NCBI GenBank assembly: GCA_039621445.1
Contig: CP154954.1
Coordinates: forward strand, 2,542,001 to 2,606,000
Length of the DNA: 64,000 nucleotides
DNA from: Euglena gracilis
Taxonomy: Eukaryota
Direction of reading: 5' to 3'
The position numbers and the translations under genes were made by a program. Of this stretch, positions 2,628 through 33,044 are shown piece after piece. The first letter of the stretch is position 1. Each line of letters starts with the position of its first letter. Under the pieces are notes generated by a model. The model saw only the letters and a program-made list of their open reading frames with translations. It had not been told where the DNA came from and did no database searches.

Positions 2628-2729
2628 CCACCACCACCACCACCACCACCACCACCACCACCACCACCGCCACCACCACCACCACCACCACCACCACCAC
2701 CACCACCACCACCACCACCACCACCACCA
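2628..2729. repeat. (CCA)n microsatellite
   Basis: Near-perfect CCA trinucleotide run; it explains the poly-P/poly-G/poly-V ORFs here. Confidence 0.95.
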
Positions 2730-2744
2730 CGTTTGGAAGCCGCG

Positions 2745-3325
2745 TTAGCGGCTTGGTTCGATCGGAGCCCCTCCTCCTGATGCTGACCGAATTGGACTCC
2801 ACCGACACGCTCCGACTGCTGGGTACCCCTGTCCCGGCCTCGTTCGACCACGACACCTGCGTTGTGCTGCCCCCCACTGCGGTGGCCTGGGCCCTCAGCC
2901 ACAAGGCCCGCAACCGGCTGCAGCACGCGCTCAACGGCAACCCACCCCCGACGCAACGCCCCGGCCTCCTCGACCGGCAGCAGCTGCAGAAGCTGCAGGA
3001 GGCGGGCAAGCTGCGTGCGGCTGGCTGGACGCTTCCCGCCGCTGTCGACAACAAGCTGCCGGTGCGGGTGTACGACACTCGCATCCCGAAGCCGAAGGAG
3101 TGGCTGCTGCAGCTGGCAGCCGACCTCCGACGCCTGGACGAGTCCGACCAGGCTTGGGTGGTGGGAGGCGATTTCGCCTCGGGAGCCGACCTGACCGATG
3201 CGGACGTCGCGGCGTGCCCCGACTCGAAGCGATGGTCGGACGAGCCCCGCCATCTGGTGATCCCGCCGCGACCTCACCTGCGGGAGCTGGTCTTGGCCCT
3301 GCGGCGGCGCGCCGAGGTGGAACAC
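2745..3325 (+). CDS. Possible coding fragment of unknown function (host exon or other element), abutting the break point of element D
   Basis: GC3-rich open frame (LLLMLTELDSTDTLRLLG...LRRRAEVEHL) with protein-like composition; no domain recognised. Confidence 0.35.
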
Positions 3326-5653: not shown

Positions 5654-5690
5654 GTCAATATCCTCACCCGGGACAGATGGTGGGTTTGTA

Positions 5691-5746
5691 GGAGGCCTGT
5701 TGTTACAGTCAAAGACCCCGCAGGTAAGTAAAGACCGACCTCGGCC
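5691..5746 (-). other. Degenerate 2A-like peptide (GRGRSLLTCG-VFDCNNRPP) in frame upstream of the RT ORF of element D
   Basis: The N-terminal half matches GRGSLLTCG of the 2A preceding RT in A/B; the DVEENPGP core is lost. Confidence 0.6.
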
Positions 5747-6074
5747 TGCCCCTCCGATGCTGCTGCTAGGGTAGGCTGTGTGCTGTCTCTCGCAGAAATG
5801 TAAGGCACCAGCACTTTTAATTGTTTGGCCGACGTTGGGTGGTTTCTTCCAGTCACCGGAGACGGAACCTTGGGGTTGTCCGGTTTATTTTGCTGAGGTG
5901 GGAAGGTTGCAGGCCAGTAGAATCCGGCAGAACTGGCTGGCTGGGGGGCCATTGTTGCAGACCAAAAAGTGGATGTGCTGTCTGGCTGGGGGGCCACTGT
6001 TTTAGTCCAAAATGTGGAGGAACATGGTTTGAGAGTTTGTCGGGGGCTTTTCAGGCTGAGAGCAAAAATGGTGT

Positions 6075-8822: not shown

Positions 8823-9117
8823 CATAACCAACCACAAGACTAATTAAACCAAAAAACAAGCAAATCACACCTTGCAACGATTGGACCAAGTCTACAAAGA
8901 CGTCCAAACCCTTACCTCACCGAAAACAGAGCCTTCCCTGCGCCAACTCCCCAAAACCTAAACTGGTCGCTGTCACAACCTCAACACTCAACAGTCCCCA
9001 TGGCCGTTCCATTGAACCTTCCCTGCCGCTATACACTTTCCTCTCACACTCGCTAACCCCCCTCCGTACTGTGCCCTTCACCGCCCTTCTTCACCCGCGA
9101 CTCTCCCCCGTCCCACC

Positions 9118-10745
9118 TTGAGAACTTGCTGTGTGCATTACTCTCACCCGCACAGGACTTCGGCTCGGAGTGAACCTCCTAGGCCGCACCTTGGTTTCTG
9201 GTTCGAGTACCTTCCGCCTCCAGTCCACTCCGTCACTTCCGCCCCTACCCCTACCTCACCTACCCCCTTCCCCCTTCGCCCCTACCCCAACTTCCAAGGC
9301 CAGGGGGACGCCCCTGTGCCTCCCATGTGTCAAGAGGCGCCCCATCCCGCCCGCCGCCCAGGGCCCCCTGAGGGGGACGCCCCCATTCCGAGATGCGCCC
9401 AACCTGTGAGCAGCAAAGGCAATGACCTGGGGGTGATGCCGCCAAGGCTCCCGCCCCCAGCGAGCCTGGGCGAGTCTCCCTGCTCCTCCCCCCGGAGGGC
9501 AGCCCCATCCCTCCAACGCCCCCGCAGCACCAGCAGGCTGGCCCACACGTCAACGGCGTTTGCGCTGGGCTATGATCCGCGGGAGACGCCACCAAGGATC
9601 TCTCCCTCGGTGAGCCCGGGCGGGCCTGTCCCTCCCCTTGGTGCTGCCGCAGTCTCCACTGCCGGCCTATCCTCCACCCCTTTCCCAAGATGCGCCCAAC
9701 CTGTGAGGACGAGCTGCCAACCCGCCCCATCGGCTGCTCCCCTTTCCAGCCCCGTCCCAACGTTCCATCCTCACATCCACAGCTGCAGCTTCGTGTGTCA
9801 ATTGTCACCATTTTACGACCAAGGGTCTTGGACACGTGACCTTTGTGAGGATGGAGATGTCGAGCCAAATCCAGGCCCAACTTCACCTCCAGATCCCGGG
9901 GCAGCTTTCTTGGCAATGAATCAAACGGCTGCTGTCATCAACCTGGCTCCTCTCCCACCGTCCGCCGCCTCCTCCGCCTCTGCACCGGCAAGACCAAATC
10001 CTCAAGCACGCAAGCGGAGGGCCGAGCGTGGTCCAGATTCCTCTGATTCTGAAGAAGAGGGCCCAGGCGTTTTCCATTGCCCGTTTCCCCACTGTTGCAA
10101 GTCCTTCCGACATGGCTTTCAAGGCTGGAATACAAAGCGGCTCGCCACAAATCATGTGGCCATGGTTCACGTTGCTGCTGGTGAAATTCCATCATCCGTG
10201 TGGCTCCAAGAAGCGCAACGCTGGGTTTGTGGCCATTGCCTAAGAATGCTGCCGGAGCGGAAAAGGTGTGTGGGGGAGAACTGCTTTCGTGTCAGAGCAG
10301 ACTCCACCCCAAGCCGCTTGCCACCACCGAGCCATCCTCCTGCAGTCCAGGCGGCCTCATCATCATCACGTAACCCCGCACCACCATGTTCCTCCTTGGA
10401 CTTACCAACTGCAGCCATGGCTACGGCGGTTCACGATATCCTGTCCCTCACCAGGCCTCTGTTTCGGCACATCCCGCGTGCAGCCATACCCTTGTGGGGC
10501 ATGGCATGGGCCAAGGTGCAACAGCGTCTCTGCTCCGAGCGCTCATGGGAGGCATTGCGAGATTGGGCCCTCTTTCAAAAAATCACACTGTGGTGCCCAC
10601 GGGGTGGCAAAGCACACAAGGGACAAGCTGCCCAGCTCATCCGCTCACGAGTCGAGCGTTTCAATGCAGGTGACCTTGCAGCTCTGTGGGACGAATATCG
10701 CCAGGGCATCCCGCCGCCGGACCGCAAGAAAAGAAAGAGCACATC
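9118..10745 (+). mobile_element. Element E: 5' part of a CRE-like retrotransposon (Pro-rich leader, 2A, two Zn fingers, pre-RT region), truncated by a TIR element
   Basis: WTRDLCEDGDVEPNPGP; FHCPFPHC..NHVAMVH and CGHC..C..C fingers; HIPRAA..W, FQKITL..RGG and R..RF.AGD..ALW motifs parallel the pre-RT regions of A, B and D. Confidence 0.8.
9829..9879 (+). other. 2A/StopGo peptide WTRDLCEDGDVEPNPGP (element E)
   Basis: Canonical D(V/I)ExNPGP motif, in frame. Confidence 0.9.
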
Positions 10746-10989
10746 GGAGACAAGGCACAGGGGGGGGGAGGGGGGGTCCGAGGGGGGTGGTTGGAAGCTG
10801 TACAGGGGGGGGGGGGGGGGGGGGGGGGCCCCGGAAAATCACAACTGTACTGCCCACCCCCGAGACAGTTGCGACATTTTTCGTCCAATTGAGGTTGGCA
10901 ATGATGGATTTTGCGAAATTCAGATGCATTTTGCAAAATATTTGTGTCTTGTAAAAAGAATGGTAGCCAGTGTTTTCACTTTAAACACT

Positions 10990-11177
10990 TACCCCCCCCT
11001 TTATTTGACCCCCCCCTTAATTGAGCATTTGGGTCCGGGGAAATTTTTTTTTTCATGCGCCGAAGGCGCCGAAAATTTTTTTTGCCCGCTTTCTAAAGGA
11101 GTTTTTGACCCCCCCCTTATTTGAGCATTTGGGGGGTCCGTTGGCCCGTGGGTGTGCTCAAATAAAGGGGGGGGGTA
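10990..11177. mobile_element. TA-flanked MITE
   Basis: TACCCCCCCCTTTATTTG...AAATAAAGGGGGGGGGTA; the paralogous copy near 13791 has an empty site with a single TA. Confidence 0.85.
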
Positions 11178-11931
11178 GCAGAAAGGCAGGAAGCAGCTTC
11201 AATCACTCCCCCTTGGCACACCATGCGGAATTGAGCCAGGGTTGACGTTTTTTTTGTTTTTCAACAAAGAACAAAATATGTTTTTTTTCAAAAAAACACA
11301 GAAAAACATGTTTTCTTTTTTTAAAAAAGCAAAAATTGACCTTTTTCCTTGCAAAATGGCCATTTTTTGAGGAAAAAGTTTTAAGGTCATTTTTTTGGTC
11401 ATCAAAAGTGACGTTTTTTAGTTTTTCCAGACACTTCATCGCACCCTTTACGGACTACGAAGCTGCAGAGATGAAAAAAGACCTTTTTTCTTAAAAAAAA
11501 GTTTCAAAAAAATTCCCCCAAACCCTTCATGAGTTTTTTTTGTTTTTTTTTAAAAAATATATTTTTCTTAGGGGGTGCCACCCCCGTGACCCCTCCCCCC
11601 CCGTTACATCCCCGTGACGTGACCCGAGAATTGATCCTCCGCCATTCTTTTTTTCAAAAGCATTTTTTTTAAAAACAATGAACTTTCATGTATCCTTGTC
11701 TGCCCAATGCACCTTCATACCCAAAAATGGCCAAAAATCTTTTCCCCTGAAAGAAGTGCCAAAAACTGGTGCATTTCCCCACCCAAAACGGAATTTTGTC
11801 AAAAATGGCCCAAACTTCATCCCAAAAACGTGTTGGTCAAGAAAATCCTAACACAATTCCCTTTCAAAATGACCAATTTTATCACGATGCAACGTCATGA
11901 ATGTTGCCTCCCGGCTACCTGCAAAGTGGCA

Positions 11932-12025
11932 TACCACCCCCCCCCCCCCATATTATCCCCCCTCCCATATTGTCCCTCGGCCCGGCCGACGAGGGGTTTT
12001 TTTGGCTCGGTCAATGAAATTTCCT
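11932..12025 (+). mobile_element. Left half of a ~175-bp TA MITE split by the inversion (right half at 14273-14348, reversed)
   Basis: The halves match the intact copy at 32867-33044; empty TA site in the paralog at 13063. Confidence 0.8.
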
Positions 12026-12265: not shown

Positions 12266-12697
12266 AAGGCGCATTTGTGCAAGAGTGGCAGAGGACAAGT
12301 GGGGAGGAGCAGCTTTCCGCACAGCACCTGCGCAAATGGCTGTCCAAGGGGAGGGAACTGTGGTGAAGGCAGGAAGTGACGACCATAAACGTATCAACTG
12401 GCAGCCGAGCTCTTTGCTCAGCTCAACAACTTGCGTCCTCGTCGCAAGTGAGAGGGCGTCAGCGGCGATCCTTAACCTTCTCATGCTTTGCAGGCCTCGG
12501 GAATTTTTTTAGGGGGGGAAAATTATCAGACGGTTTTCCATTTCCAGATTTTGGGCCAAAATCAGGGGGGGGGGGAATTATCGACCGGGGAAAATTATCA
12601 GACACTTACAGTAACCCCCCCCCCCCCAATTTTCGCCCCCCCCCCCCGGGGGGGGGGCGACTATTGGGGGGGGGCGACAAATAGGGGGGTCACGTTA

Positions 12698-12799
12698 CCC
12701 ATACGCATTCTCCACCAAAAAACTCCCAGAAATCCTGGAGATCCTGCACATGCCTCCGCCGACTGCCGACCTCTTTGCCTCCGCCTCCAACTCCCATGG
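12698..12799 (+). pseudogene. N-terminal fragment of an N6-adenine-type methyltransferase, inferred to belong to element C
   Basis: YAFSTKKLPEILEILHMPPPTADLFASASNSH aligns with FMLDTEWFQAVVRALSPHNPPTIDAFADQNN of element A; joins the 2A of C across the TA site of a TIR element. Confidence 0.6.
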
Positions 12800-14465
12800 A
12801 GGACAAGGCAGTACAGTTGGTCAAACCTTGGGACCCCCCTCCCCCCCCCTGTACAGTTCCAACCCCCCCCTCCCGGGACCCCCCCCACTTCCAACCCCCC
12901 CGAGACAGATGAAAAAAAATAAAAAAACCGGCTTGTTTTTTGGAAACAAAAAAAACATGCGGTTTTAAGGGGGTGGTGGCGGGTGGGGGGGGGGGGGGGT
13001 CATGGGGGGGTCACGGGGCGGGGGGGGGGGTCACGGGGGAAGTATGCCACTTTGCAGGTAGCCGGGAGGCAACATCCATGACGTTGCATCGTGATAAAAT
13101 TGGTCATTTTTTGAAAGGGAATTTCGTTAGGATTTTCTTGACCAACACGTTTTTGGGACGAAGTTTGGGCCATTTTTGACAAAATTCCGTTTTGGGTGGG
13201 GAAATGCACCAGTTTTTGGCACTTCTTTCAGGGAAAAATATTTTTGGCCATTTTTGGGAATGAAGGTGCATTGGGCGGACAAGGATACATGAAAATTCAT
13301 TGTTTTTTTTTAAAAAAAATGCTTTTAAAAAAAGAATGGCGAAGGATCGATTCTCGGGTCATGTGGGGGGTTACGGGGTGTAACGGGGGGGGGTCACCCC
13401 CTAAGAATTTTTTTTAAAAAAAACAAAAAAAACCAATGGAGGGTTTGGGGGAATTTTTTTTAAACTTTTTTTTAGAAAAAAGGTCTTTTTTCATCTCTAC
13501 AGCTTCGTAGTCTGTAAAGGGTGCTGGATGAAGTGTCTGGAAAAACTAAAAAAACGTCACGTTTGATGACCAAAAAAAAATGACCCTAAAACTTTTTCCT
13601 CAAAAAAATGGCCATTTCGCAAGGAAACAGGTCAATTTTTGCTTTTTTAAAAAAGAAAACAGGTTTTTTTTGTGTTTTTTTTGAAAAAAAAAAAACATAT
13701 TTTTAGTTCTTTGTTGAAAAACAAAAAAACGTCAACCCTGGCTCAATTCCGCATGGTGTGCCAAGGCGGAGCTGCTTCTTGCCTTTCTGCTAAGTGTTTA
13801 AAGTGAAAACACTGGCTACCATTCTTTTTACAAGAGACAAAATTTTCGCAAAATGCATCTGAATTTCGCAAAATCCATCATTGCCAACCTCAATTGGACG
13901 AAAAATGTCGCAACTGTCTCGGGGGTAGGCAGTACAGTTGTGATTTTCTGGGGACCCCCCTCCCCCCCCCTGTACAGCTTCCAACCCCCCCCTCGGACCC
14001 CCCCACTCCCCCCCCTGTGCCTTGTCTCCATGGGGACAAGGCAGTACAGTTGGTCAAACCTTGGGACCCCCCCTCCCCCCCTGTACAGTTCCAACCCCCC
14101 CCTTCCTGGACCCCCCCCTCCCCCCCCACTTCCAACCCCCCCGAGACAGATGAAAAAAATTAAAAAAAAATGTTTTTTTTAAAAAAAAAAAAACATGTTT
14201 TTTTAAGGGGGTGGGGCGGTTTGGGGGGGTTCATGTGGGGGTCACGGGGCGGGGGGGGGGTCACGGGGGAAGTACCCCCCCCCCCCATATTGTCCCACCG
14301 ACCTCTCCCGACGGGACAATATGGGGGGGGGGGACAATATGGGGGTACGTGTTGGTGTGCGTGTGTGCGTGTGTGGGTGTGGGTGTGTGTGCGTGTGTGG
14401 GTGTGGGTGTGTGGTTGTGTTGTGTGTGTGTGTGGTTTTTTTTTTTGGCATACCTCCTCCCGTGG

Positions 14466-17400
14466 TTAACGGAGGACGTGCTTGGGTTGTAAGAGGTGGA
14501 ACACTTCTCGGAGCAAGGCGATGGCCACATTTTGGTAGATTTCCGCTTGCTTGGTTTCGCGCTCAGCGCCCTGTTGCCAGGACGATGCGCGTTTGGCCAC
14601 TCTGCTCAGTGTCTTGGCCGTTTCCGGTCCCATGCCACCCCATGTCCCGAGGGCGAAAGGTGTGAAGCCCCAACCTGCTTGCTGACATGGCACGTTGTAT
14701 TTCTGCTTTTTGGCGTCCTCCCTCCTCTTCAGGAAGGATCTCCAGCGTTCGCGCGTCGCTGTGTGTTCTGCCGCTTGCCATCCGTGGCAGACGGTGACGT
14801 CCAGCGCCGTCGGCTTCCCCTCGGACCAGCAGTCCAGCAGGAGGTCCGCCGGGCGTAGGTGACTGTCTCGGGCCGTTGGCAGGGAAACTTCCTTCTGCAC
14901 CCGGTGACCGCTGTTGGACAAGGTTTGAAACAGAGCGTCCTGAACAGCGTTGTGCCGGGCTGAGAAGTTGTTCCTGCGGCAGCAAAGCAGGTGGTCGCCT
15001 TCCTGGTCCAGAGGCTGGCCGCACCCTGTGCACGGCTGGCTGACGTCCACCAGCACCGGAAGCCCTAACCACCACTTCAGTCCCAAGGTGTACTCCTCGC
15101 TAGAGAAGGTGGTGTGGGAGTTGTTGGAGGGGGTGGCCGCCATCCACCCGTGTCCGAACCCCGTGGCTTGTTCAAGGAGGCGGTTCTGGTCGCGAGGCCG
15201 GGCCTGGTCCACAAGGCCGCCCATCGCCTTTTTGCCCAGCTCGTGGTTCCACCACTTTTGCCTCCGGGGTTCTTGGTCCGCGGAGGCGAGTCGTTGTGGG
15301 TCTGTGAGGAAGGTGGTGACCGTGGCATGGTTGGCTCCTAGCCTGCCCCGGAGGTCGTCCAGGACGGGCGCGACCAGGGGTAGCTGCAGGCCGGATGCGT
15401 AGTCGGGCACACCCACGCGCCTGGCCCCGTCTGAGTAGAAGTCTGCAAGACAGGAGATCCTGGCTGCGGGCTGAGTGCAGGACGGGACGCGGAGGCCGCA
15501 GCCCCCGCTGGATAGGGGCAGCGACGCTTGGGTCTGCTGTTGTGGGTTCAGTGCCGTGCCCAGTATGTCCTCGAAGGCGTTCATGATGACCTCCGAGCAG
15601 CCTGTAATCTGATCTTGGCTGCCATACGAGTCGGACGCGCGTAGGAGGTGGTTCACTTTGCAGCCGTCTAGGCAGCTCCGCAGAAGGTGATGTGCCACCT
15701 GGGCGTCGGTGAGGGACGTTATGGTAGATGAGGCCTTCTCGATCTTGGGCAGCATCCGCCCACGCTTTCTTAGTGGTGTCGGAGGACGCGGGGTGGTCTA
15801 CTGGGATTCCGAGCACGGTAATGCCTTCCCCTGGTGACCAAGGGACCACTTGCAATCTGTCGCAACTGGGTGCACTCCGCGCTCCCGGGCCCCACATGAC
15901 GCACTTCTGCAGGTTGAGGCGAGGCCGATGCGGTGGGACTCTTGCAGCAGGAAACGGAGGCAGTGTTCAATCCTGTCGGGGGTTCCGACCAGGAGGCCGT
16001 CGTCCAGGTACCAGCTGTTCCATAGCAGCTGGCCGTCCCTGGTTATCTGGTCCAGCAGCGGCTGCAGCGCCAGGGCGAACCCGATGGGGCCCAGAGGGCA
16101 GCCCTGGTGTGTGCCCCTCTGGGAAAGGATGGTGCGGCCCCCGCAGAAGAGGGGGACGGGCCCGCTGTATGCAAACCTCAGGAAATTGAACAGACTGGGT
16201 GTACGGGTCTCGGCCTCTGTGAGGATCGCCCCTCGGTCAACTGTGTTGAAAGCATTGGAGTAGTCCACCTGGAGGGAAACCCAGGGTGAGGTGTCCCCCA
16301 GCTGAAGCACGAGGTGCTGCATGCCCAGGGCAACGGCCTCGGCGGCGTTCCGTACCCCAACCCCGACCTGGGTGGGGGCGAGCGTTGCAACCTCCGACCG
16401 GGCATGTGGTGTCTGGAGCAGTGTTTTCCCTACCAGGCGGCGGATGGTCTCCCCAACCGCCACTGGCCGCACCCCGTTGTCCTTCTTGCGGAGTGGGGTC
16501 AGATTCGCGCAGCACCAGGCCGCGGCGTGGTGCGGGGGTAGTAGCTGGCCGTCAATCCAGAACTGGGTCAGCCGCGCAAGGGCTGTGATCAGCTTGGCTC
16601 CTCGGCCCGGCCTACGAAGACAGTCTTGGAGGTGGCTGGGCCGCAGGCCCGACGGGCCTGCGGCGGAACCCCGTGGGAAACGGCGGATGGCCTCCTTCAG
16701 TCTGTCCTCCCATTCCGGGATGTGGTTCTCAGGGAAGGGCTTAACATGTCGCGGGAGGCGGTTGGTGTCCACCTGTCTGCCGCTTGGGTGCAACTTCTCC
16801 AGGGCAGCCCAGACATCCGGATCATCCGGTTGGTGCGCGCCCTCAGAGAGCAGTAGCTGGACTGCCTTCGCAGACGCCCCTCTTCAGCGGTGAGGGTGCG
16901 CACACCCGTCTCGTGATGGCCTCACTGAGGGCGGTCGGCTGCGTTCTGGAGCGCTTTTCCGCCCTGGTTTCCACGACGGAGTGTCGAGCCTGTGCGTCTT
17001 TATTGCCTCTGTCAGAAGGGTGCCGTAGTCCCCCTCGCGGAACAGTTTGGTACGCCTCAGCAGGATGGACTCCAGCTCCGCTGCCGGCGGTGGTTTGGTA
17101 GTCGACACCGGTCGGAGGACGAGTTTCGGGAAGGATAGGACGCTGAATAGAGCAGCGTCCGAGGGTGCGTGCGTGTATGCGTTGATGGCATCTGCCAAAG
17201 TGTCAAAGACAGGTTGCTGGAAGGCCGAGGGCAGGTGAATAAGGGTCGAGATTCTTTGTTGGAGGACGTGGGTGATGTCGCAAGGGGGAGTGCCCACGAC
17301 CAGATTGTGTGCGGGCCGTCCCCGGAGGTTGGACTCCTGCCCCGCGCTGTCGATAACTACCGCGCGGCGTCAAGTTCCGGGAGCCAGGTCCAGAAAGAGG

Positions 17401-17468
17401 TGGTCGTGGTCCCGGGCATCCGCAGCAGCCGGTGCGCCATGAGGTGGCCCGGAGGCCGGGCGCTTGGC
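14466..17468 (-). pseudogene. RT-RLE protein of element A (several frameshifts)
   Basis: ORF pieces 16884-17297, 15798-16793 and 14466-15755; GPSG, RPVAVGE, VDYSNAFN, QGCP, YLDD (15999-16010), CTGC..HLLCC, RHN, RPAD, DVT, KKQKY. Confidence 0.92.
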
Positions 17469-17522
17469 TGGCCCAGGGTTCTCCTCCACATCTCCACAGG
17501 TGAGGAGGCTACCCCGTCCGCG
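17469..17522 (-). other. 2A peptide RGRGSLLTCGDVEENPGP preceding RT-RLE (element A)
   Basis: 17/18 residues identical to Thosea asigna virus T2A (EGRGSLLTCGDVEENPGP). Confidence 0.95.
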
Positions 17523-17821
17523 GTTTGCCCCCCGTATGCAAGGACTGCCCCGCGGCGGACAACGATGGCCGTTTTTTGGCAGTGAGTCGGCTACCGCTGC
17601 CGGATCCAGGGGGGCCCGTGGCCCGTCGAGGAGGGAGTGAGGGGTGGGGGTCAAAAGCCGGGCGTAAGAGCGGTGGTCTAGGGGCGGCAAACTGAAGAGG
17701 GAGCAGCGTGGGGCAGTCCCAAGGCCATTGCCACAGGCCGCAGCGAAGGCACCAGCAGGGGGTCTGACCGCGGATGTCCCACGGGGCGTTCCGGTGGAAT
17801 AGGAATGTCCGGCCTGCTGCA

Positions 17822-17995
17822 TACCACCCCCCCCCTTTATTGTCCCACCGACCCCCACGGGCGGCCCTTACAATAAGGGGGGGGACAAGAAAGGGGTACC
17901 AAAGGAATTTCATTGGCCGGGCCAAAAAAACCCCCCGTCGGCCGGGGCCCAGGGACAATCAAGGGAGGGGGACAATAAAGGGGGCGGGGGTGCTA
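17822..17995 (-). mobile_element. TA-flanked MITE inserted into the Cys-rich cargo domain of element A
   Basis: Related to 32867-33044; removing it restores the frame ...FRLGD-Y-AAGRTF... Confidence 0.85.
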
Positions 17996-18189
17996 GTCCC
18001 CTAGGCGGAAGACTTCGCCGCCATGAGTGGAGCGGCGTTCTATGATAAGGCGTTGTTGGCCAAGGGAGAGGAGCGGTGCAAGGGGGTAAGGGGAGTGCGC
18101 GTGGCGCGAGAAGTGCCGTCCGTGGTCAGCGCCCCGGTGGGGACCCGGGGGGCCGGGCGCCGCATGGGCTGCCGCTGCCGGTGTGGCAA

Positions 18190-18585
18190 ATCCGTAGGGC
18201 TGTGGTCGACCATGGGGGCCGGCAGCAGCGCTGTCCCCCGGGCCCGGTAGATGGGGCATCGCGGTAAGGTCACGGAAAGCGAGGAGAGGCGCCGCAGGCC
18301 GGCCAGCGCGGTGGACCACTCCGGTGCGAGGAGGATGATGTTGCCCCCAAATCGAAGGACGTGTTCCAAAACACGGGGGAGCAGGGAGAAGGGTGGGTTG
18401 CACCACAGCGGGTTTGGCAAGTTCCAATTCTGGAGGAATGCATCCTCCCTTGATGACCAGAAGGCGTCCAGTTGGGTGTTATTTTGGTCGGCGAAAGCGT
18501 CGATGGTGGGCGGGTTATGGGGGGACAGAGCCCGTACCACCGCCTGGAACCACTCGGTGTCCAGCATGAAGTCTTCGCGTGGTGC
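18190..18585 (-). CDS. Phage Dam/DIRS-like DNA N6-adenine (amino) methyltransferase domain, 2A-delimited
   Basis: PTIDAFADQNN (SAM-binding), DAFLQNW, LWCNPPFS (NPPF at 18388-18399), IILLAPEW; put in frame with the upstream 2A by adding one base to a 7-G run. Confidence 0.85.
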
Positions 18586-18623
18586 GAGGGGGGGAGAACG
18601 GATGAAGCCCGGCCGGAGCTCGT

Positions 18624-18677
18624 GGGGCCGGGGTTGCTCTCCACATCTCCCGCAGTGAGGATGTCTGCGCCCCTGCC
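18624..18677 (-). other. 2A peptide GRGADILTAGDVESNPGP (element A, before the methyltransferase)
   Basis: Canonical DVExNPGP. Confidence 0.9.
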
Positions 18678-18919
18678 GCTCCGAGGCCGCGGGGGAGCTA
18701 ACAGGCGGCGGCAGCCGGCGGCCTGGCGGCGAAGTGTGGAGGTGATGAGGCGCCCACGCGGGGCTCCCTGTGAGTCTCTGGGGGGGGAAGCACGTGGACG
18801 TGGAGTGGAGGTGAGGCCCCGGGGGGTGCCGGTGCCGGGCTGCTGGGCCCAAGAGCGGACGCTCCCCGTCTGGGACGCGTGGAGTCATCGTCGTCGGCAT
18901 CGTCATCCTCCGGGTCGCT

Positions 18920-19372
18920 ATCGACGTCAGAGAGAGACGGTGGTTGGCAGATCTGCATGTGGGCAACTATGGGCGCTGGGTAGGGGGTCGCAGTCGACCA
19001 TCCGCACATTTGGCAGTGTACCAGCCACCACTCGCCGTTTGGGAGGGACTCCAAGTGCTGTAGCCTCCAGCGCCACGAGTCTTCTCTTATGGAGGGGAGA
19101 GAGAAAATGTTTCCCATGGGCCTACCCGCCTGGCATTGATGGGACTGCATGCCTTGGAGGGACGACAGGTTGACGTGCTGAGAGCACAAGAGGCATCTCG
19201 CAAATTCGGACCCTGCCGACGCGAGGTGTGCTGCCGTCCCCGACGACGAGGGGCCGGCGGTTGCCGGGGTGAGCAGACGTAGCCACCGCCAGTGTTGGCC
19301 AGTCCAGTAGATCTCCTCCCAGACGTCGTCGGGCGCCAGGGGGGGGGATGGGCTCGCCGGTCCCCCCGGGCG
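18920..19372 (-). CDS. 2A-released module with two Trp-rich CxxC..H..C zinc fingers (BED-like), element A
   Basis: VWEEIYW..FARCLLC..MQSHQC and WRW..WLVHCQMC..IVAHMQIC, then an acidic tail; conserved in B. Confidence 0.65.
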
Positions 19373-19430
19373 AGGCCCCGGGTTCTCCTCGATATCGCCG
19401 CAGCAGAGGATATCCCTGTGGCAGAGCTGC
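19373..19430 (-). other. 2A peptide QLCHRDILCCGDIEENPGP (element A, first)
   Basis: Canonical DIExNPGP. Confidence 0.9.
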
Positions 19431-20751
19431 CTCGAGAGGCCGGGGCGACTGTGACCGTCGGCGTGATGCCACCCCATCGTATGCCCGTGGCGCCGGCCCC
19501 CCCCGAGGGGCGGTAGCCGGCCGCCCTCCCCCCCCCCTTCTTGGGGCTGCGCGCAGGGGGGATACAGGAGCAGCTGGACGTCGTCGTCCGCTAGGTCAGA
19601 CCAGGTGCGACCGGGGGGGGGGGGGGGCAGGGGGGAAGTGGTGGTGATATGGATTCCCTCCAGCCAGTGGTCCACGAGGACTTTTTTGTATTTTTTCTGG
19701 ACCCGGTCCATTCCCCCCAGATGGAGGCGTCCGTCGAAGACAGCACAGACCAATCGTCTGCTGCTGAAATCGAGTTTGTCGGCAGGTTGGCCGGGGCTCT
19801 GGAACTGGCTGCTAAGGTGTGCTCCTTTTTTTGTGCAGCCCTTTTTTGATCCACCAGGTCGGTGACCATTTTCTTTTCCTCAGTGGACCTTGTCCTGAGT
19901 TTTTCCAAAATCCTCTGGATTTGGGGTGTTGTGGTGCATTTTTGGGGGGGGGGCCTTGGCCCAGTCCTGGGTGTGACTTCAAAAACTTCTGCCCCCCCCT
20001 CTTCCACTCCCCCCCCCTTCGATTTGGCAGGGCACAAATGAAGGAGATGGTGGGAGGAAGGGTCCAGAGGGTCCAGCTGCCATTAAGAGCGGGGCATCGG
20101 TAGCAATGGACATGTGGCTGCCATTTGAATTTAAATTTAAATTTAAATTTGGAACATTTCCAAGCAGCATCCACATGATTTGTAGCAGCAGCTGTCGCAG
20201 CAGGTCGGTGGGGAGCTGCAGCCCTTGGTTGGCTGTTGCACTGGCTGTCATGGTGGGGGTGTTCCCCACAGGGCCCCCCAGGAGGCTGCCCATCTGGGCC
20301 CCCATTTGGCTGCCCATTTGCCCCATTTGGGGCTGCAGCTGTTGCTGCTGTTGCTGCTGTGGCTGCTGTTGTGGCTGGGCAGTCCTTCCAGGCTTCCCCT
20401 GGGGATTTAAAAGTGTGTGGTGTGTGTGGTGTGTGTGTGTGTGTGTTGTAGCCAGGGGGGCGGTAAGGGCTGCTCAGGCTGGTGTCGGAGGTGGCGGGGG
20501 ATGTAGCGGCTCTGGTGCTTTTTTTTGAGGAACTCCTCGTAGGCTTCGTCTTCTTGTCGTCTCCTTTTTCCCGGTCGTCCTTCCTCCACCTTGTCGGCCA
20601 GCTCTTCCACTTTGCTTGCTAATACCACCATATTTTGAGCCACCAGGCTCACTTGCTCCAGCACCGAATTCAATTTTTTGTTGAGGATGACGTTGTCCAG
20701 CGGCACTTCCAGCACGGCTGGCGGGTCTTCTGGGGCCGCGGCCCCCGACAT
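19431..20751 (-). pseudogene. ORF1-like N-terminal region of element A (coiled-coil, Q/QMG-rich), frameshifted
   Basis: ATG 18 nt after the SL (GCCATG); heptad-like LNSVLEQVSLVAQNMVVLASKVEELADKVEE; QMGSQMG and LPTDLLRQLLLQ shared with B. Confidence 0.6.
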
Positions 20752-20769
20752 GGCGGTTTATGCGGAGAT

Positions 20770-20795
20770 CGAAAAAAAATAGACACTCAGAAAGT
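20770..20795 (-). other. Exact spliced-leader exon at the 5' end of element A
   Basis: ACTTTCTGAGTGTCTATTTTTTTTCG, 26/26 to the Euglena SL as I recall it. Confidence 0.92.
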
Positions 20796-21109
20796 GGCTC
20801 AACTTTTTTTTTTCGGACACAGAGTGATTCACTCACGGTGGTGGGGCGAACCGAATCCACCGACCAGTGGCGCAGCCTACTGGATTTGAATGTTCGAGGG
20901 TGCGGGGATATAGACAACGCTGGAGTGTGGGTCAGTTCACAGCAGGGGCAAAGGGCGGCGGGAGGAAAATGGGCGAGGCCCACCTTCAATATGTTGCGCG
21001 GGGGAAGAGAGGAGCGGAGGTGTGCGGCGGAACAGGAGTACGTGCGGGGGAGGAGGGGTGAGCGGCAGGGCAGTACGCGGCTCGGTGAGGTGTGCTGTGG
21101 TGGGCGTGG

Positions 21110-21145
<36 letters not shown>

Positions 21146-21183
21146 CTGTGCGTTCGTTTTCTTCCGTCTCTCTGTTTTTTTTT

Positions 21184-24182
21184 TTATCGGAGAATGTGCT
21201 TGGGTTGAAGGAGGTGGAAGACTTCGCGTAGCAGGGCGATTGCAACGTTCTGGTAGATCTCTGCCTCCTTTGTTTGACGTTCCGCTCCCTGTTGCCAGGA
21301 GGAGGCGCGTTTCGCCGCCCTGCTCAGGGTTTTGGCCGTCTCAGGTCCCATGCCCCCCCACGTCCCGAGGGCGAAGGGCGTGAAGCCCCAGCCTGCTTGC
21401 TGGCATGGGATGTTGTACTTTTGCTTTTTGGCCTCCTCCCGTCTCTTCAGGAAAGATCTCCACCGTTCGCGGGTGGCCGTGTGTTCCGTCGCCTGCCATC
21501 CGTGGCAGACGGTGACGTCCAGTGCCGTCGGTCTCCCGTCAGACCAACAGTCCAGGAGGAGGTCAGCCGGGCGGAGGTGGTTATCTCGTGCCGTTGGCAG
21601 GGCAACCTCCTTTTGCACCCGCTGTCCGCTGTTAGACAAGGTTTGGAAAACCGCGTCTTGCACAGCGTTGTGGCGGGCGGCGAAGTTGTTCCTGCGACAG
21701 CAGAGGAGGTGGTCTCCCTCCTTGTCCAGGGGCTGGTTGCATCCCGTGCATGGTTGGCTGACATCGCTTAATACCGGGAGGCCCAGCCACCACTTCAGCC
21801 CCAAGGTGTACTCTTCGCTGGAGAAAGTGGTGTGGGAGTTATTTGAGGGGGGTGCCGCCATCCAACCGTGTCCGATACCTGTAGCCTGTTCCAGGAGGCG
21901 GTTTTGGTCCCGCGGTCTGGCGTGGTCCACTAGATCATCCATGGTCTTCTTGCCCAGCTCGTGACTCCACCACTTCTGCTTCCGGGGCTCTGAGTCCGCG
22001 GAAGCGATGCGTTGAGGGTTGTTGAGGAAGGTGGTGACGGTGGCGTGATTGGCCCCTAGCCGGCCCCTGAGGTCGTCCAAGACAGGCGTGATGAGGGAGA
22101 GCTGTGGGGAGGTTGCGTATCCAGGAACACCGACACGTCGTGCCCCATCAGAGTAGAAATCTGCAAGGCAGGAAATCCTGGCCGCCGGCTGTATGAAAGA
22201 TGGGACGCGGAGGCCGCAGCCGCCACTCGACCAGGGCAGGGAAGCCTGGGCCCGCTGTTGTGTGTTGAGAGCCGTGCCCAGTACGTCCTCAAAGGCGTTC
22301 AAGATCACCTCAGAGCAGCTTCTCACCTGGTCCTGGCTGCCATACGAGTTAGAGGCACGCAGCAGGTGGTTTACCTTGCAGCCATCCAGACAGCTTCGGA
22401 GCAGGTGATGTGCTACCTGAGCGTCGGTGACGGACGTGATGGTGGATGAAGCCTTCTCAATTTTGGCGGCGGCAATCTCCCACGCAGTTTGTGTGGTGTC
22501 CGTAGAGGCTGGATGGTCGATTGGGATACCCAGGACGGTGATGCCCTCCCCTGGGGTCCAGGGGACCACTTTCATCCTCTCACAGCTCGGCATACTCCTG
22601 GCTCCCGGGCCCCACAAGACGCACTTCTGCAGGTTCAGGCCGAGCCCCACTCGATGGGACTCTTGCTGCAGGAAACGTATGCAGTGCTCAATCCGGTCTG
22701 GGGTCCCGACCAGCAGGCCGTCGTCCAGGTACCAGCTGTTCCACAGCAACTGGCCATCTTTGGTGATCTGTTCCAATAGAGGCTGTAGCGCAAGTGCGAA
22801 CCCTATAGGGCCCAAAGGGCAGCCTTGGTGTGTGCCCCTTTGTGATAGGATGGAGCGACCACCACAGAACAAGGGAACGTGCCCGCTGTACGCAAATCTC
22901 AGGAAATTGAACAAGCTGGGGGTGCGCGTTTAGGCCCCGTTAGGATCGCCCCGCGGTCCACCGTATTGAACGCATTGGAGTAGTCCACCTGGAGAGAAAC
23001 CCAGGGCGATGTGTCCCCCAGCTGGGTGACCAGGTGTTGCATCCCCAATGCGACGGCCTCAGCTGCGTTTCGTACCCCAACCCCAACCTGGGTAGGGGCG
23101 AGGGCGGCAACCTCGGATCTGGCGTTTGGTGTCTGGAGCAGGGCTTTCCCCACCAAGCGGCGGATGGTTTCCCCAACCGCAACCGGTCGTACCCCGTTAT
23201 CCTTTTTGCGGAGGGGTGTCAGATTCGCACAGCACCAGGCGGCGGCGTGGTGGGGCGGTAGCTGGCCGTCCACCCAGGCTTGTGTCAGGAGAGCGAGGGC
23301 AGTGACCAGCCTTGCTCCCCGGCCTGGTCTCCGCAGGCAGTCTTGGAGGTGGCTCGGTCGCAAACCAGATGGCCCCGGCGCCGACCCCCGCGGGAAGCGT
23401 CGAATGGCTTCCCTCAGTCTGTCCTCCCAGTCAGGGGTGTGGTTCTCGGGAAATGGGCGGACGTGACGCGGCAGGCGGTTGGTGTCAACGTTCCTGCCGA
23501 TAGGGTGTAGCTTTTCCAGGGCGGCCCAGACCTCTGGGTCGTCAGGTTGGTGCGCCCCCTCGGACAGCAGAATCTGGACAGCCTTGGCCGAGGCCCCCTC
23601 CGCAGTGAGGGTGCGTATGCGTCTATTCATTGCTTCACTGAGGGTGGTGGGCTGTGTCCTGGAGCGTTTTTCCGCCCTGGTTTCAACAATGGAGTGTCGT
23701 GTCTGGGTGTCCTTCTGGGCCTCTGCCAGCAGGGTGGCATAGTCCCCTTCGCGGAAGAGCCTGGCACGTCTCAGCAAGATGGACTCCATTTCTGCAGGTG
23801 GCGGTGGTTTGGTTGTTGACGCGGGGCGTAGGACAAATTTGGGGAAGGAGAGCACGGCGAACAGCGCCGCGTCCGATGGTGCGCGTACGTAGGCCGTGAT
23901 GGCGTCTGCCATGGTGTCGAAGACATATTGTTGGCAGGCGGAGGGTAGGTGGATGAGGGTCGGAATTCTCTGTTGGAGAACGTGGGTGATGTCGCAGGGG
24001 GGAGCCCCAATCACCAGGCTATGCCCAGGCTGCCCTCGGAGATTGGATTCCTGGCCTGCGCTGTCGATGATCATTGCCGCGTCGCGATCCGGGTGAGCGA
24101 GGTCCAGGAAAAGGTTGTCATGCTCCCTGGCGTCTGTTTCGGTTGGCGCGCCACGAGGGGATGTTGGTGCCGGGCGCTTGGC
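21184..24182 (-). CDS. RT-RLE protein of element B (one frameshift near 22930, possibly a sequencing error)
   Basis: ORFs 22899..25364 and 21184..22914; YLDD at 22720-22731; complete RLE motifs; closely similar to A. Confidence 0.92.
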
Positions 24183-24236
24183 TGGTCCCGGGTTCTCCTC
24201 CACATCCCCGCAAGTGAGAAGGCTACCCCGTCCGCG
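24183..24236 (-). other. 2A peptide RGRGSLLTCGDVEENPGP (element B)
   Basis: Same peptide as in A but with many synonymous codon differences. Confidence 0.95.
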
Positions 24237-24539
24237 GGTAGCCCCCAAAGTGTGGGCACCGCCCAGCGTCGGGCTACAACGGTCGTTTTTTGGAGTGGGG
24301 TGGGCCGGTGCTGATTTAGCACGTGGTGTTTGTACAGCGTGTAGGAGGGGGCGCGGGATGGTAAGGATGGCATCGCCCCTGCCAGTGGATGTATGGGGCG
24401 AGATAGGAAATGGACGGTCGACGGGGGTGGGCGCTGGTGCTGGGCTTCCGGAGTCTGCAACGGTGAAGTTCCTTTGGTCGTGTTCCGAGTCACCGTGCAT
24501 GTCATCATCTCCGTCGTGTTCAGCGTCCCTTTCCGAGTC

Positions 24540-24989
24540 GCTCTCCAAGTCCGAGAGGGACGGCGGTAGACAAATTTGCATGTGGCTCAGTAGGGGCGCC
24601 GGGTAAGGGGTTTCGGTCGACCACCCACACACCTTGCAGCGCACCAGCCACCACTCGCCATTTGGAAGGGACTCCAGGTGTTGTAAATTCCAGCGCCAAT
24701 AATCTTCCCGGACTGTGGTGAGGGAAAAAATGTTACCGAACGGCCTACCTGCCTGGCAGTGATGAGACTGCATATCCCAGAGGGACGACAGGTTGATGTG
24801 CTGAAAGCACAGGCGGCATCTCGCAAATTCCGTCCCTGGGCCGGTCTGGGAGGGGGTCCCGAAGGATGGACCTGCTGTAGCTGGGGTGCGCAGCCGTAGC
24901 CACCTCCAGCGCTGGCCATTCCAATACAGCTCATCCCAGACGTCGTCTGGTGTCAGGGGGGCTGATTGGCTTGCTGGGCCCCCTGAGGG
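24540..24989 (-). CDS. 2A-released tandem BED-like zinc-finger module, element B
   Basis: FARCRLC..MQSHHC and LVRCKVC..LLSHMQIC, in an uninterrupted frame between two 2As. Confidence 0.65.
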
Positions 24990-25046
24990 CGGGCCCGGGT
25001 TTTCTTCGATATCCCCACAGCGTAGGATATCCCTGCGACAATTTTG
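24990..25046 (-). other. 2A peptide QNCRRDILRCGDIEENPGP (element B, first)
   Basis: Canonical DIExNPGP. Confidence 0.9.
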
Positions 25047-25964
25047 CCTTTGGTTCTTGAGCCACAGGGGCTCTGGCTGCAGTGGACCGCCAGTCCTGTG
25101 GGTGCCCACTGTGCGCCAGGTTCCCCACGTTCCGATGGGGAGAAGCCAAAAGGCTCCAGCCACTTGCTGTGTTTCCAGTGTGGACCTAGTCCTCGTTTTC
25201 CCCAAGATTTGGAGTTTTGTGGTGCAATTTTCTGGGGGGGGGGGTGTTGTCTTTTTTGGGACCTCCAATTTCTCCTTTCCCCCCCCCCCCCGCCTCCCGC
25301 CTTTGGCTTGGGCAGAGTATTGGGCAGGGCACAAGGGGAAGAAAATGTTGGGAGCAAGGTCCAATGGTTCCAGCTGGGGGGGCCAATGGTAGTGGGGCAG
25401 CTTGCAACAGCAGCTGTCGCAGCATGTCGGTGGGGAGCTGCTGCCCTTGATGGTTGTTGGCTTTTGCCCTGGTGCTCATGGGGGGGGTGTTCCCCACTGG
25501 GCTGCCCATCTGGGTCCCCATTTGGCTGCCCATTTGTGGCCCCATTTGTCTGCCCATTTGTGGCCCCATTTGGGCCAGCAGCTGTTGCTGCTGTTGTTGC
25601 TGGGCAGTCCTTCCAGGCATCCCCTGGGAAAGTAAAAGTGTGTGGTGTGTGTGGTGTGTGTGTGTGTGTGTGTGTGTGTTGTAGCCAGGGGTGGGGTAAG
25701 GGCTGCTCAGGCTGCTGCTGCTGCCACGATGCCAAACACATGTCGTACTGCTCAAAGGGCTCAGAAGCCCACTTCACTGTGGTCGTGTTCTGGACCTTCA
25801 CTCCACCTTGGACTCGACTTGGACGTCCACTTGTTCTTGGACTTAACCCCTTGTACTTGATACCAGTACTTGTGACCAACAAGTGGGTATGCTGCTCGCA
25901 GTTGTCCTTCGTATTGAGCTTCGGACCCCACTCGGGGCTTTCAAGCCATGAGCACGTGTGGAGA

Positions 25965-25990
25965 CGAAAAAAAATAGACACTCAGAAAGT
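25965..25990 (-). other. Exact spliced-leader exon at the 5' end of element B
   Basis: 26/26 identical to the copy at 20770-20795. Confidence 0.92.
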
Positions 25991-25998
25991 GGCTCAAC

Positions 25999-26450
25999 TG
26001 CTTTTTTCCTTTGATTAGATTCAAACTGCTTTCGCTTTGCTTTCGCAGCAGGATCTGCCCAGTGTTGTCCGTGATGTGCACTCGGTTTCGATAATCTTGC
26101 AACACAAGTGCAACAAAACCTGCATCGTGCAGGCTATATTTGCCCTTGTTGCGTTGCTCGATATGACGCTTGCCAGGTGCTGTCCCACGGGACTTCCCAC
26201 GGGCCATTAGTGATTCCTTCACGGGCATGAGAAAATCTGTCAAATGAAAAACCGGTCGATAATTTTCCCCCCCCCTGGTTTTGGGCTCCGTGGGGGGGGG
26301 AAATTATCAGACACTTATAGTAACCATGGACCCATGGAAATGTGGGGTGAATTGAGTAGCCCCCCCCTAATTGTCACTTTCCCCCTAATAGTCGCCAAGG
26401 GGGTCAAAACGCTCCCAGGGGGGTGCCATATAGGGGGGGGGGTCACGTTA
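25999..26450. mobile_element. Right part of a TA-flanked TIR DNA element (terminus GGGGGGTCACGTTA) that received A and B; other part at 12266-12697
   Basis: AAATTATCAGACACTTA..GTAACC and GGGGGGTCACGTTA are shared by 12590-12697 and 26300-26450. Confidence 0.7.
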
Positions 26451-28084
26451 TGTGTCGTCAGAGGCGTGCCTGGGTTTTGTTCAATGTCCCCACAGCGAAG
26501 GAGGGGCTTTCCGGGTGTCCATTTGCAGGATTTGTCCTTTGGGCGGGCAATGTGCAGTAAGGGGCTGTTTTGGCGAGGGCGGTGTTCCGGGGGGAGACAA
26601 GGCCTCGACCCACGTCTTGCCTGTGGTAAAGGAGTCTCCACAACCGCTAGCTGACCTGTCGGAGGAAATTCCTTTCTTCCATCACTTTTTGGTGAGCAAG
26701 GGCCGACGTCTTTCTTTTGTTGAAAAAGGCTGCGTAATGGGTTACGTCGTCATCCTCCATTTCCGAGGGAGGGGGGGCTCCATACTAATGAGGGCAGTTG
26801 TTCTTGTTCAGGGGGGGGCGTGCTTTTTGGTGGGCTCTGTGGCCCATGATCCTGGAATATTTCTGCTCCAGCTGTAACATAAGGGGATGTATGCTGGGGG
26901 TGTTGATGTGCCTGGGGGTGGAGGTTCAGGTTTGTAAATAAAAAAACAGTCAACATCATGTCTGGGGGGGCTTGGAGGTATGGCGTTGATTTTGCCAAAT
27001 TTTTTGGGAGTGGGTTTTCAATCGCTAGACGATTTTCATCTTCAATGTTGGACTCAGTTTGGTGCAACTGGTGGGGGGGGGGGATCAGCTGGGGTGGGGG
27101 TGGGGGTGGGAGATTGGGGTAGCAGGTTGTGGAACTTTGCATGGGGTGAGGCGCAAACTTGCAGAAATGAAAGGCTGGCATGGGTGGTTCTGGGCTGGGC
27201 AGGGGGGTTGGCAGTGGAGGCAAATTGTGTAGTTTGGGGGGGGGTTGGACTGTAGAACATTGCATGGGAAGCAGGTGTGTTTCAGGTTTGACATGGGGGT
27301 TGGCTGTTCAGGGGGGGAAATGCAGAGCACAGGAGCAAGGCATGGGGGGGAGGCAGGTTCCAGCAAGTGCAGTCCAGAGCAATCAGATGCAGATTCGTGG
27401 GTGATGGCTGGCCCAGGTCTCTAGGGGTGGGGTGGGGGGGGGCTGGTTGAGAGGGGATGCTGGGGGGTGGGGGCAAGCAGGCATTCTGTGGTGGCGGATT
27501 GGTTTGGCAGTGGTGATAATTTGGGTGAGAATTTGGTGCTGGACTGGGCTGATTTGTCAGGAATGGTGGGGGTGCAGGCAGGAGGGGGCACAGCTGGGGG
27601 GGTTGGAAGGCCTGGCCAGTCTGGGGGGAATGAGGGTGGGGAACAGGGAGGGGAGTGAGCCATACATTGTTAATCTTCTTCTTCCCGATGATGCTCAGGG
27701 GCTGTTGAGAGCAGGCTCCATTGTGGTGGGTGGCTGAATTGCAATGGTTCCTGTGGGAGCTGCACAGCCTCTCCCACAGCCCAAGAAGCCTCCACAGCAG
27801 GAGGCTTCTTAGTTTGGCTAAGTCTACCCCACTTGGGGACTGTGGGGTCAGGAAGGGGTTGCTCCCCTCATTCCCTTGACTCCCCTGGAATGGGGAGTTG
27901 AAGGGGCCCTTGGGACGCTTCGCTGCCGCGCTCTTGTTCGATGCTTCTTCGGGGGCTCTCTCCTTGCTCATCCTTCGACCACCTTGTTACGCTCGTCGGC
28001 GTATTCTTTGGCGTCCAGCACGCCGGCTTCATGCAACTCAGTGAGTCCTCTCAAAATTTCTTTGATTTCGTTCGTCGTACTCAT
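26451..28084 (-). mobile_element. Element C: 5' part of a divergent, related retroelement (ORF1-like, Pro-rich region, 2A-like LLRCGDIEQNPG)
   Basis: ATG at 28084 (MSTTNEIKEILRGLTELHEAGVLDAKEY...), frameshifted Pro-rich frames, 2A-like motif at 26465-26503. Confidence 0.6.
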
Positions 28085-32866: not shown

Positions 32867-33044
32867 TACCACCCCCCCCATATTGTCCCCCCTCCCATAT
32901 TGTCCCTCAGCCCGGCCGACGAGGGGTTTTTTTGGCTCGGTCAATGAAATTTCCTTTGGTACCCCCATATTGTCCCCCCCCCCATATTGTCCCGTCGGGC
33001 CTCCTGGGGAGAGGTCGGTGGGACAATATGGGGGGGGGGGGGTA
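32867..33044 (+). mobile_element. Intact TA-flanked ~175-bp MITE
   Basis: TA-C(n)-ATATTGTCCC...GGGACAATAT-G(n)-TA; family members at 11932/14273 and 17822. Confidence 0.85.

Follow-up and report, generated by a model that had tools for sequence, protein, structure and literature searches.

A decayed R2-like retrotransposon of Euglena gracilis probably carried a Dam-like methyltransferase directly behind a 2A site

The stretch of Euglena gracilis DNA analysed here, 64,000 nucleotides of contig CP154954.1 (assembly GCA_039621445.1, positions 2,542,001 to 2,606,000 of the forward strand; hereafter the window, whose own positions are used throughout), is eukaryotic repeat DNA. It holds two pieces of a putative retrotransposon, element C, which lie 13.7 kb apart and each adjoin an end of the same high-copy repeat, T. 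One piece is the 5' flank of C, which reads on the minus strand and contains a 2A/StopGo-like motif (26468–26503), and the other is a 34-codon stretch on the plus strand that resembles the N-terminus of a Dam-like DNA methyltransferase (12696–12797). Between them lie element A (14373–20481, −), the reference element in which a 2A motif is followed by a methyltransferase, and element B (21085–25714, −), which is about 80% identical to A and has no methyltransferase cassette. The original prediction, made from the sequence alone, joined the two pieces of C across T at a shared TA, after reversing a presumed inversion, and took the methyltransferase for a recurring cargo of this element family.

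The map of elements was derived from a self-comparison of the window and a six-frame motif scan, the coordinates of A and B being the limits of similarity in the self-comparison. Contigs of four sequencing runs (~1.3–1.8 Gb each), all of them short, were aligned to 12300–27300. Summed contig depths over this region range from 1e3 to 4e5 in the four runs, so nearly all of the span between the two pieces of C is multi-copy.

Results

The same repeat terminus abuts both flanks

The terminus GGGTCACGTTA has exactly two exact matches in the window, both on the plus strand, which end at 12697 and 26450 as originally described, and the peptides at both flanks read as had been reported. The left junction runs ...GGGGGGTCACGTTA up to 12697 (+) and the right junction ...GGGGGGGGGTCACGTTA up to 26450 (+). 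With at most one mismatch allowed, the terminus has three matches compared with 0.61 expected, a count reached in 5 of 100 shuffles, and a 22-nucleotide subterminal motif located ~90–125 nucleotides inside both T ends occurs exactly twice, against an expectation of 0.00. About 200 nucleotides upstream of both ends can be aligned with many indels, and a 374-column alignment of the T ends, including their flanks, has a mean column identity of 71%. The high-copy end that adjoins the 5' flank of C (...GGGTCACGTTA) occupies 26232–26450 (+), and the second end, in the same orientation and adjoining the methyltransferase fragment, occupies 12512–12697 (+).

The summed contig depth of T reaches ~3.3e5 at 26432–26433 in run X1. 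Contig joints connecting 12687 with 26421 and 12689 with 26324 show only that both T ends belong to one family. No terminus of the opposite orientation was found in the window, so the assignment of T to the elements with terminal inverted repeats (TIRs) stays that of the original prediction; only under the proposed join would its two ends form an inverted pair. Pfam searches of seven open reading frames (ORFs), which lie near T or upstream of either C or an element at 2561–5884, returned no family, and no transposase was found for T. Contigs of two runs also join 12300 to 26038 on opposite strands, with depths of 2220 and 6200. The window has no inverted similarity between these two positions, and the joint would fit an intact T interior of ~0.8 kb or, alternatively, an edge effect of the aligned stretch.

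The fragment belongs to the methyltransferase family of element A

Positions 12696–12821 (+) translate to YPYAFSTKKLPEILEILHMPPPTADLFASASNSH, followed by unrelated residues, and the first codon, TAC, takes in the TA at the boundary of T. Because BLASTP against the methyltransferase of A gives only 7/14 identities (E 0.004) and the Pfam Dam model gives no match to the 34-residue piece, we collected relatives of the methyltransferase cassette of A, which amount to 539 database proteins at E<=1e-3, and examined the best 150. The ten relatives that were looked up all come from metagenome assemblies. The signature D.FA...N occurs in 115 of the best 150, and a family hidden Markov model (HMM) was built from these 115 database proteins with zero window sequences. 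When the 2045 six-frame ORFs of the whole window were searched with it, this HMM recovered A (E 9e-49) and the fragment (E 5.8e-4), the next match outside A having an E of 0.42. The fragment scores 19.7 bits, a value reached by 0 of 2000 composition-preserving shuffles (maximum 8.4).

An alignment of the fragment (...PPPTADLFASASN...) with nine relatives in which the methyltransferase follows a 2A motif contains six real invariant columns (P, P, D, F, A and N); the seventh invariant column, G107, is spurious and stems from the tail that does not belong to C. The family motif P-x-P-x(2)-D-x-F-A-x(3)-N is present in the fragment as P-P-P-T-A-D-L-F-A-S-A-S-N. The fragment shares 13/31 identities with the environmental protein P0044 and 9/30 with A, which identifies it as a diverged lineage of the Dam-like family of A. 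It is also multi-copy, as one contig in each of the four runs covers it at a depth of 1025–2125; elsewhere in the aligned region, the depth of contigs identical or nearly identical to the window is ~18–25. Between this high-copy variant and the window there are five differences, of which three fall on synonymous third positions in the proposed frame.

A chance similarity within proline- and alanine-rich repeat DNA could explain the absence of a Pfam match and the few identities to A, particularly as the neighbouring DNA is of low complexity and rich in repeats. We consider this highly improbable, since the independent family HMM detects the fragment window-wide at a score that no shuffle attained, all six real invariant family columns are present, and the high-copy variant keeps the frame with its three synonymous changes. 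Two further weak, collinear matches resembling the methyltransferase at 3588–3929 (+; E 0.42 and 3.5) were rejected as chance, being antisense to a reverse transcriptase (RT) ORF.

Six residues past the N that closes its motif, the fragment gives way to repeat W, ~30 codons before the expected catalytic NPPF. W (12794–14274, no strand assigned) is bounded by ~250-bp direct repeats that are 85% identical (12794–13044 and 14028–14274), its core is the reverse complement of 10742–11941, and its depth is 1.4e5–2.9e5. The ~1.2-kb inverted repeats 10742–11941 and 13035–14032, 90–93% identical, bracket the T end and the fragment, and the right copy, with the ~250-bp direct repeats at its sides, resembles a miniature terminal-repeat element.

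The 2A motif of element C is defective in this copy

The motif of C, LLRCGDIEQNPG (26468–26503, −), matches positions 5–20 of a profile of relatives carrying both 2A and methyltransferase, with a domain E of 0.0066. It reads GDIEQNPG, and the codon after NPG is ACG (Thr) in place of the obligatory final Pro of a D(V/I)ExNPG-Pro motif, so the 2A is defective in this copy; the other six 2A motifs found in the window by the motif scan have NPGP. The 17-nucleotide linker between NPG and the terminus of T (26451–26467, −) reads ASDDT in a frame offset by two bases from that of the 2A, which points to the loss of one nucleotide in the region of the Pro codon and bears out the frameshift originally placed there.

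Upstream, the open frame of C (26504–26749, −) contains neither an in-frame ATG nor a detectable zinc-finger cassette; the ATG at ~26536–26538 is out of frame by one base. An HMM of the zinc-finger cassette run on the window detected A and B only, and its best match near C had an E of 2.1. The methyltransferase is therefore probably the first cassette of C, as in the relatives P0165 and P0042 described below. The claim that it occupies the same position as in A thus stands as regards its place directly after a 2A motif and falls as regards the preceding module, which in A is a zinc-finger cassette. This copy of C is a dead relic: it has lost the Pro codon, is frameshifted, lacks an in-frame ATG, carries the T insertion and is cut ~30 codons before NPPF.

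The two flanks align with consecutive parts of one profile

To relate the two flanks, we used the profile of 2A and methyltransferase mentioned above, comprising the 18 of the best 150 relatives in which no more than 70 residues separate D.FA from a 2A motif upstream. Positions 5–20 are matched by the 26451 flank (...GKPLLRCGDIEQNPG) and positions 27–58 by the 12698 fragment, that is, the two matches are consecutive. The six profile positions left between them are taken up by the linker x(0-6)-[ED]-D that precedes the conserved Tyr/Phe; the relatives read x(0-6)-[ED]-D-[YF] after NPGP. In the joined C, the Asp of the 2A and the Asp of DLFAS would be 36 residues apart, or 37 with the missing Pro, and the same distance in the 18 relatives is 32–55 (32–36 in 10 of them). 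Both T ends finish in TA, and the frames of the flanks agree only when exactly one TA is kept, as a TA target duplication would predict, given the proposed join. The joining at the shared TA that had been put forward thus gains support, the former contiguity of the flanks being our interpretation of it. In run X1, the depth of the fragment (~1480) is close to that of 26589–26649 (~1500–1960); the other runs agree less well.

The flanks might instead come from unrelated elements, a genuine Dam N-terminus of another Dam-bearing element having been cut by T while the 2A at 26468 heads a different cassette, for example a zinc finger like the one behind the first 2A of A and B. The T ends have the same orientation 13.7 kb apart, T is so abundant that independent insertions would be common, and Dam domains also occur in relatives of the long-terminal-repeat (LTR) type (RT_RNaseH and rve in 2 of 33 long relatives). 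In addition, ASDD after the 2A of C faintly resembles the APDD/TPDD that A and B show 14 residues past their first 2A, but this reading requires a deletion of 14 codons. We regard unrelated flanks as unlikely because several coincidences would have to combine: a fragment whose start falls a few residues at most from where the post-2A linkers of the relatives end, a 2A flank that ends five codons past NPG, and an identical terminus next to both, with frames compatible through a single TA.

The geometry of the locus leaves room for an assembly artefact, in which a mis-join or mis-orientation inside T would hide one ordinary T insertion between the flanks. T and W, with depths >=1e5, are classic sites of mis-assembly, and the contigs of the four runs are short, none spanning the region. 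The window itself shows no break, and we deem such an error quite improbable; it would alter the geometry only and leave the reading of a 2A followed by a methyltransferase intact, which makes it a sub-case of the explanation that we prefer and not a competitor. An inversion by recombination between 10742–11941 and 13035–14032 is possible in principle and is not favoured, as W (12794–14274) is intact in the present arrangement, which argues against a simple inversion between those repeats.

Several observations weigh against former contiguity of the flanks and a methyltransferase-bearing C. The join requires a frameshift, and both T ends have the same orientation with the opposite end absent from the window, so that an extra rearrangement or a second copy must be assumed; W, for its part, has the look of a single intact insertion. 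The fragment is short (34 codons), its similarity to the methyltransferase of A is slight by BLASTP and escapes the Pfam Dam model, the three synonymous changes out of five are suggestive and not significant alone, and neither the catalytic NPPF nor a continuation scoring with the family HMM was found anywhere in the window. Likewise, no RT or restriction-like endonuclease (RLE) attributable to C was found in the window, and the RLE-type membership of C is founded on relatives such as P0165. No uninterrupted copy of C was found in the protein database or in metagenome contigs: protein searches with the fragment (P0008) against longer proteins and with the 5' flank of C against near lengths gave two candidates each, none of which scored, an exact 24-mer of the fragment had 0 matches in the metagenome contigs, and an alignment-derived pattern had 201 matches there, 0 of them confirmed. 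The joint of 12698 with 26451 on opposite strands is absent among the 15 of 289 joints listed, which is evidence neither way.

Relatives carry the methyltransferase as a 2A-delimited cassette

A 2A motif is present in 38 of the best 150 relatives of the cassette of A, and these are concentrated near A (30 in ranks 1–50, 5 in ranks 51–100 and 3 in ranks 101–150). The spacing from D.FA...N to NPP[FYW] is most often 34 residues (62 cases), and the family expectation is ~33–39. A search for longer proteins starting from the C-like relative P0093 yielded P0165 and P0042. P0165 (1627 residues) comprises a 2A (223), a Dam methyltransferase, a second 2A (385), a zinc finger, a third 2A (499), an RT (YLDD at 1097), a CCHC motif (1437) and RPADI (1495), and hence the full-length order of 2A, methyltransferase, 2A, zinc finger, 2A, RT and RLE. 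P0042 encodes Dam, 2A, a zinc finger, 2A and the N-terminus of an RT, whereas P0052 and P0010 have the order of A, namely zinc finger, 2A and Dam. Among 33 long relatives, Pfam identified Dam in 30, RVT_1 in 13, RT_RNaseH together with rve in 2 and Chromo in 1. The view that the methyltransferase is a recurrent cargo of the family and not a one-off capture gains support from these proteins.

Three to five 2A motifs per ORF occur in P0080, P0043, P0052 and P0162 (up to five in P0080), and P0052 has the variant GDIHPHPGP where a 2A is expected.

Elements A and B and their neighbours

Element A contains three 2A motifs (19376–19396, 18627–18647 and 17472–17492, all −), and its Dam cassette (17493–18626, −), with 2A sites at both bounds, is recognized by the Pfam Dam model (PF05869; 30.9 bits against a cut-off of 28.1). 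Its NPPF lies at 18388–18399 (−). The 2A and the methyltransferase of this copy are out of frame by one nucleotide. Contigs of the four runs carry one extra base after 18587 in most of the A-copy depth (2998/3029 in X1 and 13178/22912 in X2), which by frame arithmetic brings both into one frame, and the frameshift is private to this copy. Likewise, contigs skipping 17818–17993 indicate that a 176-nucleotide insert within A, resembling a miniature inverted-repeat transposable element (MITE), is private to this copy; together, the frameshift-free and insert-free contigs point to more intact A-type copies in the genome. In X2, contigs without the insert contribute roughly one quarter of the summed depth at this place, and the insert itself matches 32868–33044 and 11938–12025 in the self-comparison.

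A and B share the order of 2A, zinc-finger cassette, further 2A and RT (RVT_1). The model of the C-terminal domain of B has a mean predicted local distance difference test (pLDDT) score of 80, and R2 retrotransposon proteins are its top seven fold matches (E 6e-7 to 1e-3), which identifies A and B as R2-like long interspersed nuclear elements (LINEs) with an RLE. B, and by homology A, has the corresponding arrangement, with CCHC and a PD-(D/E)XK-type fold behind the RT. A PDB sequence search with the RT region and the methyltransferase of A gave nothing useful, and an ESM Atlas search with the RT returned RVT_1 clusters only, with uninformative taxa.

When 24298–24531 (−) of B is compared with 17585–18908 (−) of A, B reads TGRGDAILTI where A has the methyltransferase cassette, and this peptide resembles the start of the second 2A of A (SGRGADILTAGDVESNPGP). 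B may accordingly have arisen by deletion from an A-like element and not be a cargo-free ancestor; the DNA support for such a deletion is weak (20 nucleotides at 85%, E 0.26).

A third RT element lies at 2561–5884 (−; RVT_1, E 2e-11), with a degenerate 2A (GRGRSLLTCGVFDCNNRPP) and a run of ~39 Gly codons (a poly-G/C tract) in the tail of its open frame. The fourth element, at 9016–10741 (+), has an intact 2A (CEDGDVEPNPGP, 9856–9876) followed by a Cys/His-rich region and ends at the repeat that begins at 10742. A sharp repeat boundary is found at 20835–20836, where in each run 83–99 contigs end loosely on the near side in A-rich, mutually unrelated sequence and the next bin has a depth >2e5; 12179–12243 matches 20836–20899 in reverse in the self-comparison.

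Discussion

We conclude, with a probability of roughly three in four, that C is a decayed member of an R2-like, RLE-type non-LTR clade whose ORF had a methyltransferase directly behind a 2A site, and that the two flanks were once contiguous and were split by T. This reading of the sequence would imply a single long ORF in which 2A/StopGo sites set apart cassettes that are released separately. The first cassette of C, behind a short leader and a 2A, would be a Dam-like (PF05869-type) N6-adenine methyltransferase, and the intact element would have continued into NPPF, an RT and an RLE. In active relatives, skipping of the Gly-Pro bond by the ribosome would free a presumably active methyltransferase of ~150–170 residues, translation then proceeding to a zinc-finger cassette and an RT-RLE. 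The very high-copy T, a putative TIR element that would duplicate its TA target, would have entered C at a TA located seven codons past the 2A, and W would have cut the 3' flank after 34 codons. The present opposite orientation of the flanks could reflect one rearranged locus or two copies of a composite of C and T, a third option being the wrong assembly inside T considered above.

To our knowledge, DIRS elements were for a long time the only eukaryotic retroelements known to carry Dam-like methyltransferases. A preprint of 2026 extends them to LTR elements, its accessible text describing PF05869 Dam domains with an Asn-Pro-Pro pocket in DIRS and 'DAM-LTR' retrotransposons (bioRxiv 10.64898/2026.05.21.726589). 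As described there, the cargo of those elements resembles that of A and C in belonging to the same Pfam family with a conserved Asn-Pro-Pro pocket, in being retrotransposon-borne and multi-copy, and in often occurring as orphan fragments. In the parts of that account accessible to us, the domain lies inside a DIRS or Ty3-like pol beside an RNase H, an integrase or a tyrosine recombinase; here, by contrast, it would be a free-standing 2A-delimited cassette of an R2-like RLE LINE. The accessible main text of the preprint mentions no DAM-bearing LINE class and neither '2A-like' nor 'self-cleaving', and reports that some Euglena DAM-LTRs have LINE/L1-like RTs and that the Dam domains of DIRS, LTR and adintovirus origin were inactive when tested in E. 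coli (10.64898/2026.05.21.726589).

The nearest analogue, going by the accessible part of its description, is the SymbioLINE-Dnmt of Symbiodiniaceae, a LINE with a DNA methyltransferase upstream of the RT (PMC5890265). According to that part, methyltransferase-free relatives share the genome, as B stands beside A here, and the enzyme is a C5-cytosine methyltransferase (DNMT) encoded by a separate ORF1 of a LINE with an apurinic/apyrimidinic endonuclease (APE; Exo_endo_phos) (PMC5890265). The elements studied here differ in having a Dam-like adenine enzyme within one 2A-separated ORF of an RLE-type LINE.

We know of published LINE 2As only as single sites near the N-terminus of ORF1 or ORF2 of APE-type elements. 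In the elements of the window and their relatives, two to three 2A sites would cut an RLE-type ORF into cassettes, one of which is a methyltransferase. Accessible portions of the literature place 2A/StopGo sequences of non-LTR elements in L1Tc/Ingi and animal APE-type elements (PMC3708506) and record, in one survey, that dinoflagellates and the TSAR clade have 2A peptides of class B (PMC12338488), and the motifs found here resemble these known LINE 2As, as far as those portions go, in being D(V/I)ExNPGP motifs inside LINE ORFs.

B resembles the R2 protein (PDB 9dou, 9nl3, 9nl2, 8iby, 8ibz, 8gh6 and 8ibw) in its CCHC and PD-(D/E)XK-like fold with RVT_1 upstream, and differs from it in a sequence identity of 15–18% and in an N-terminal part replaced by 2A-delimited cassettes. 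The elements of the window gave no evidence of rDNA targeting as in R2, and R2 features are not visible for C itself.

Full-text literature searches combining 2A, non-LTR and methyltransferase returned an unrelated review only, or nothing, and searches for an adenine methyltransferase with a non-LTR element or a restriction-like endonuclease returned no such element; the Dam domains described in the literature found are those of DIRS and LTR elements, not of 2A-partitioned R2-like LINEs. Dam cargo in retrotransposons is therefore already known, and the evidence supports as new its occurrence as a 2A-delimited cassette in R2-like LINEs.

We cautiously lean towards a broader proposal, namely that this genome and many marine-type metagenome contigs hold undescribed 'DAM-LINEs', R2-like RLE elements whose ORF would consist of a 2A-delimited leader, a Dam-like adenine methyltransferase, a zinc-finger protein and an RT-RLE. 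The methyltransferase would stand before the zinc finger (C, P0165 and P0042), after it (A, P0010 and P0052) or have been lost (B), with the 2A sites acting as joints for module shuffling, and the freed enzyme may mark new cDNA or target DNA with N6-methyladenine (6mA).

The C copy itself is a relic without function, and its greater significance lies in the family to which it points. If our reading is correct, a single genome contains at least two diverged lineages of LINEs with a Dam-like methyltransferase, in each case directly behind a 2A, and many environmental relatives likewise carry the methyltransferase behind a 2A, so that the cargo would be a stable, selected feature of an R2-like LINE clade and not the accident of a single capture. 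The 2A sites would then be cassette boundaries that allow modules to be gained, lost and reordered, and the family would provide a natural case of a retrotransposon that frees a DNA-modifying enzyme.

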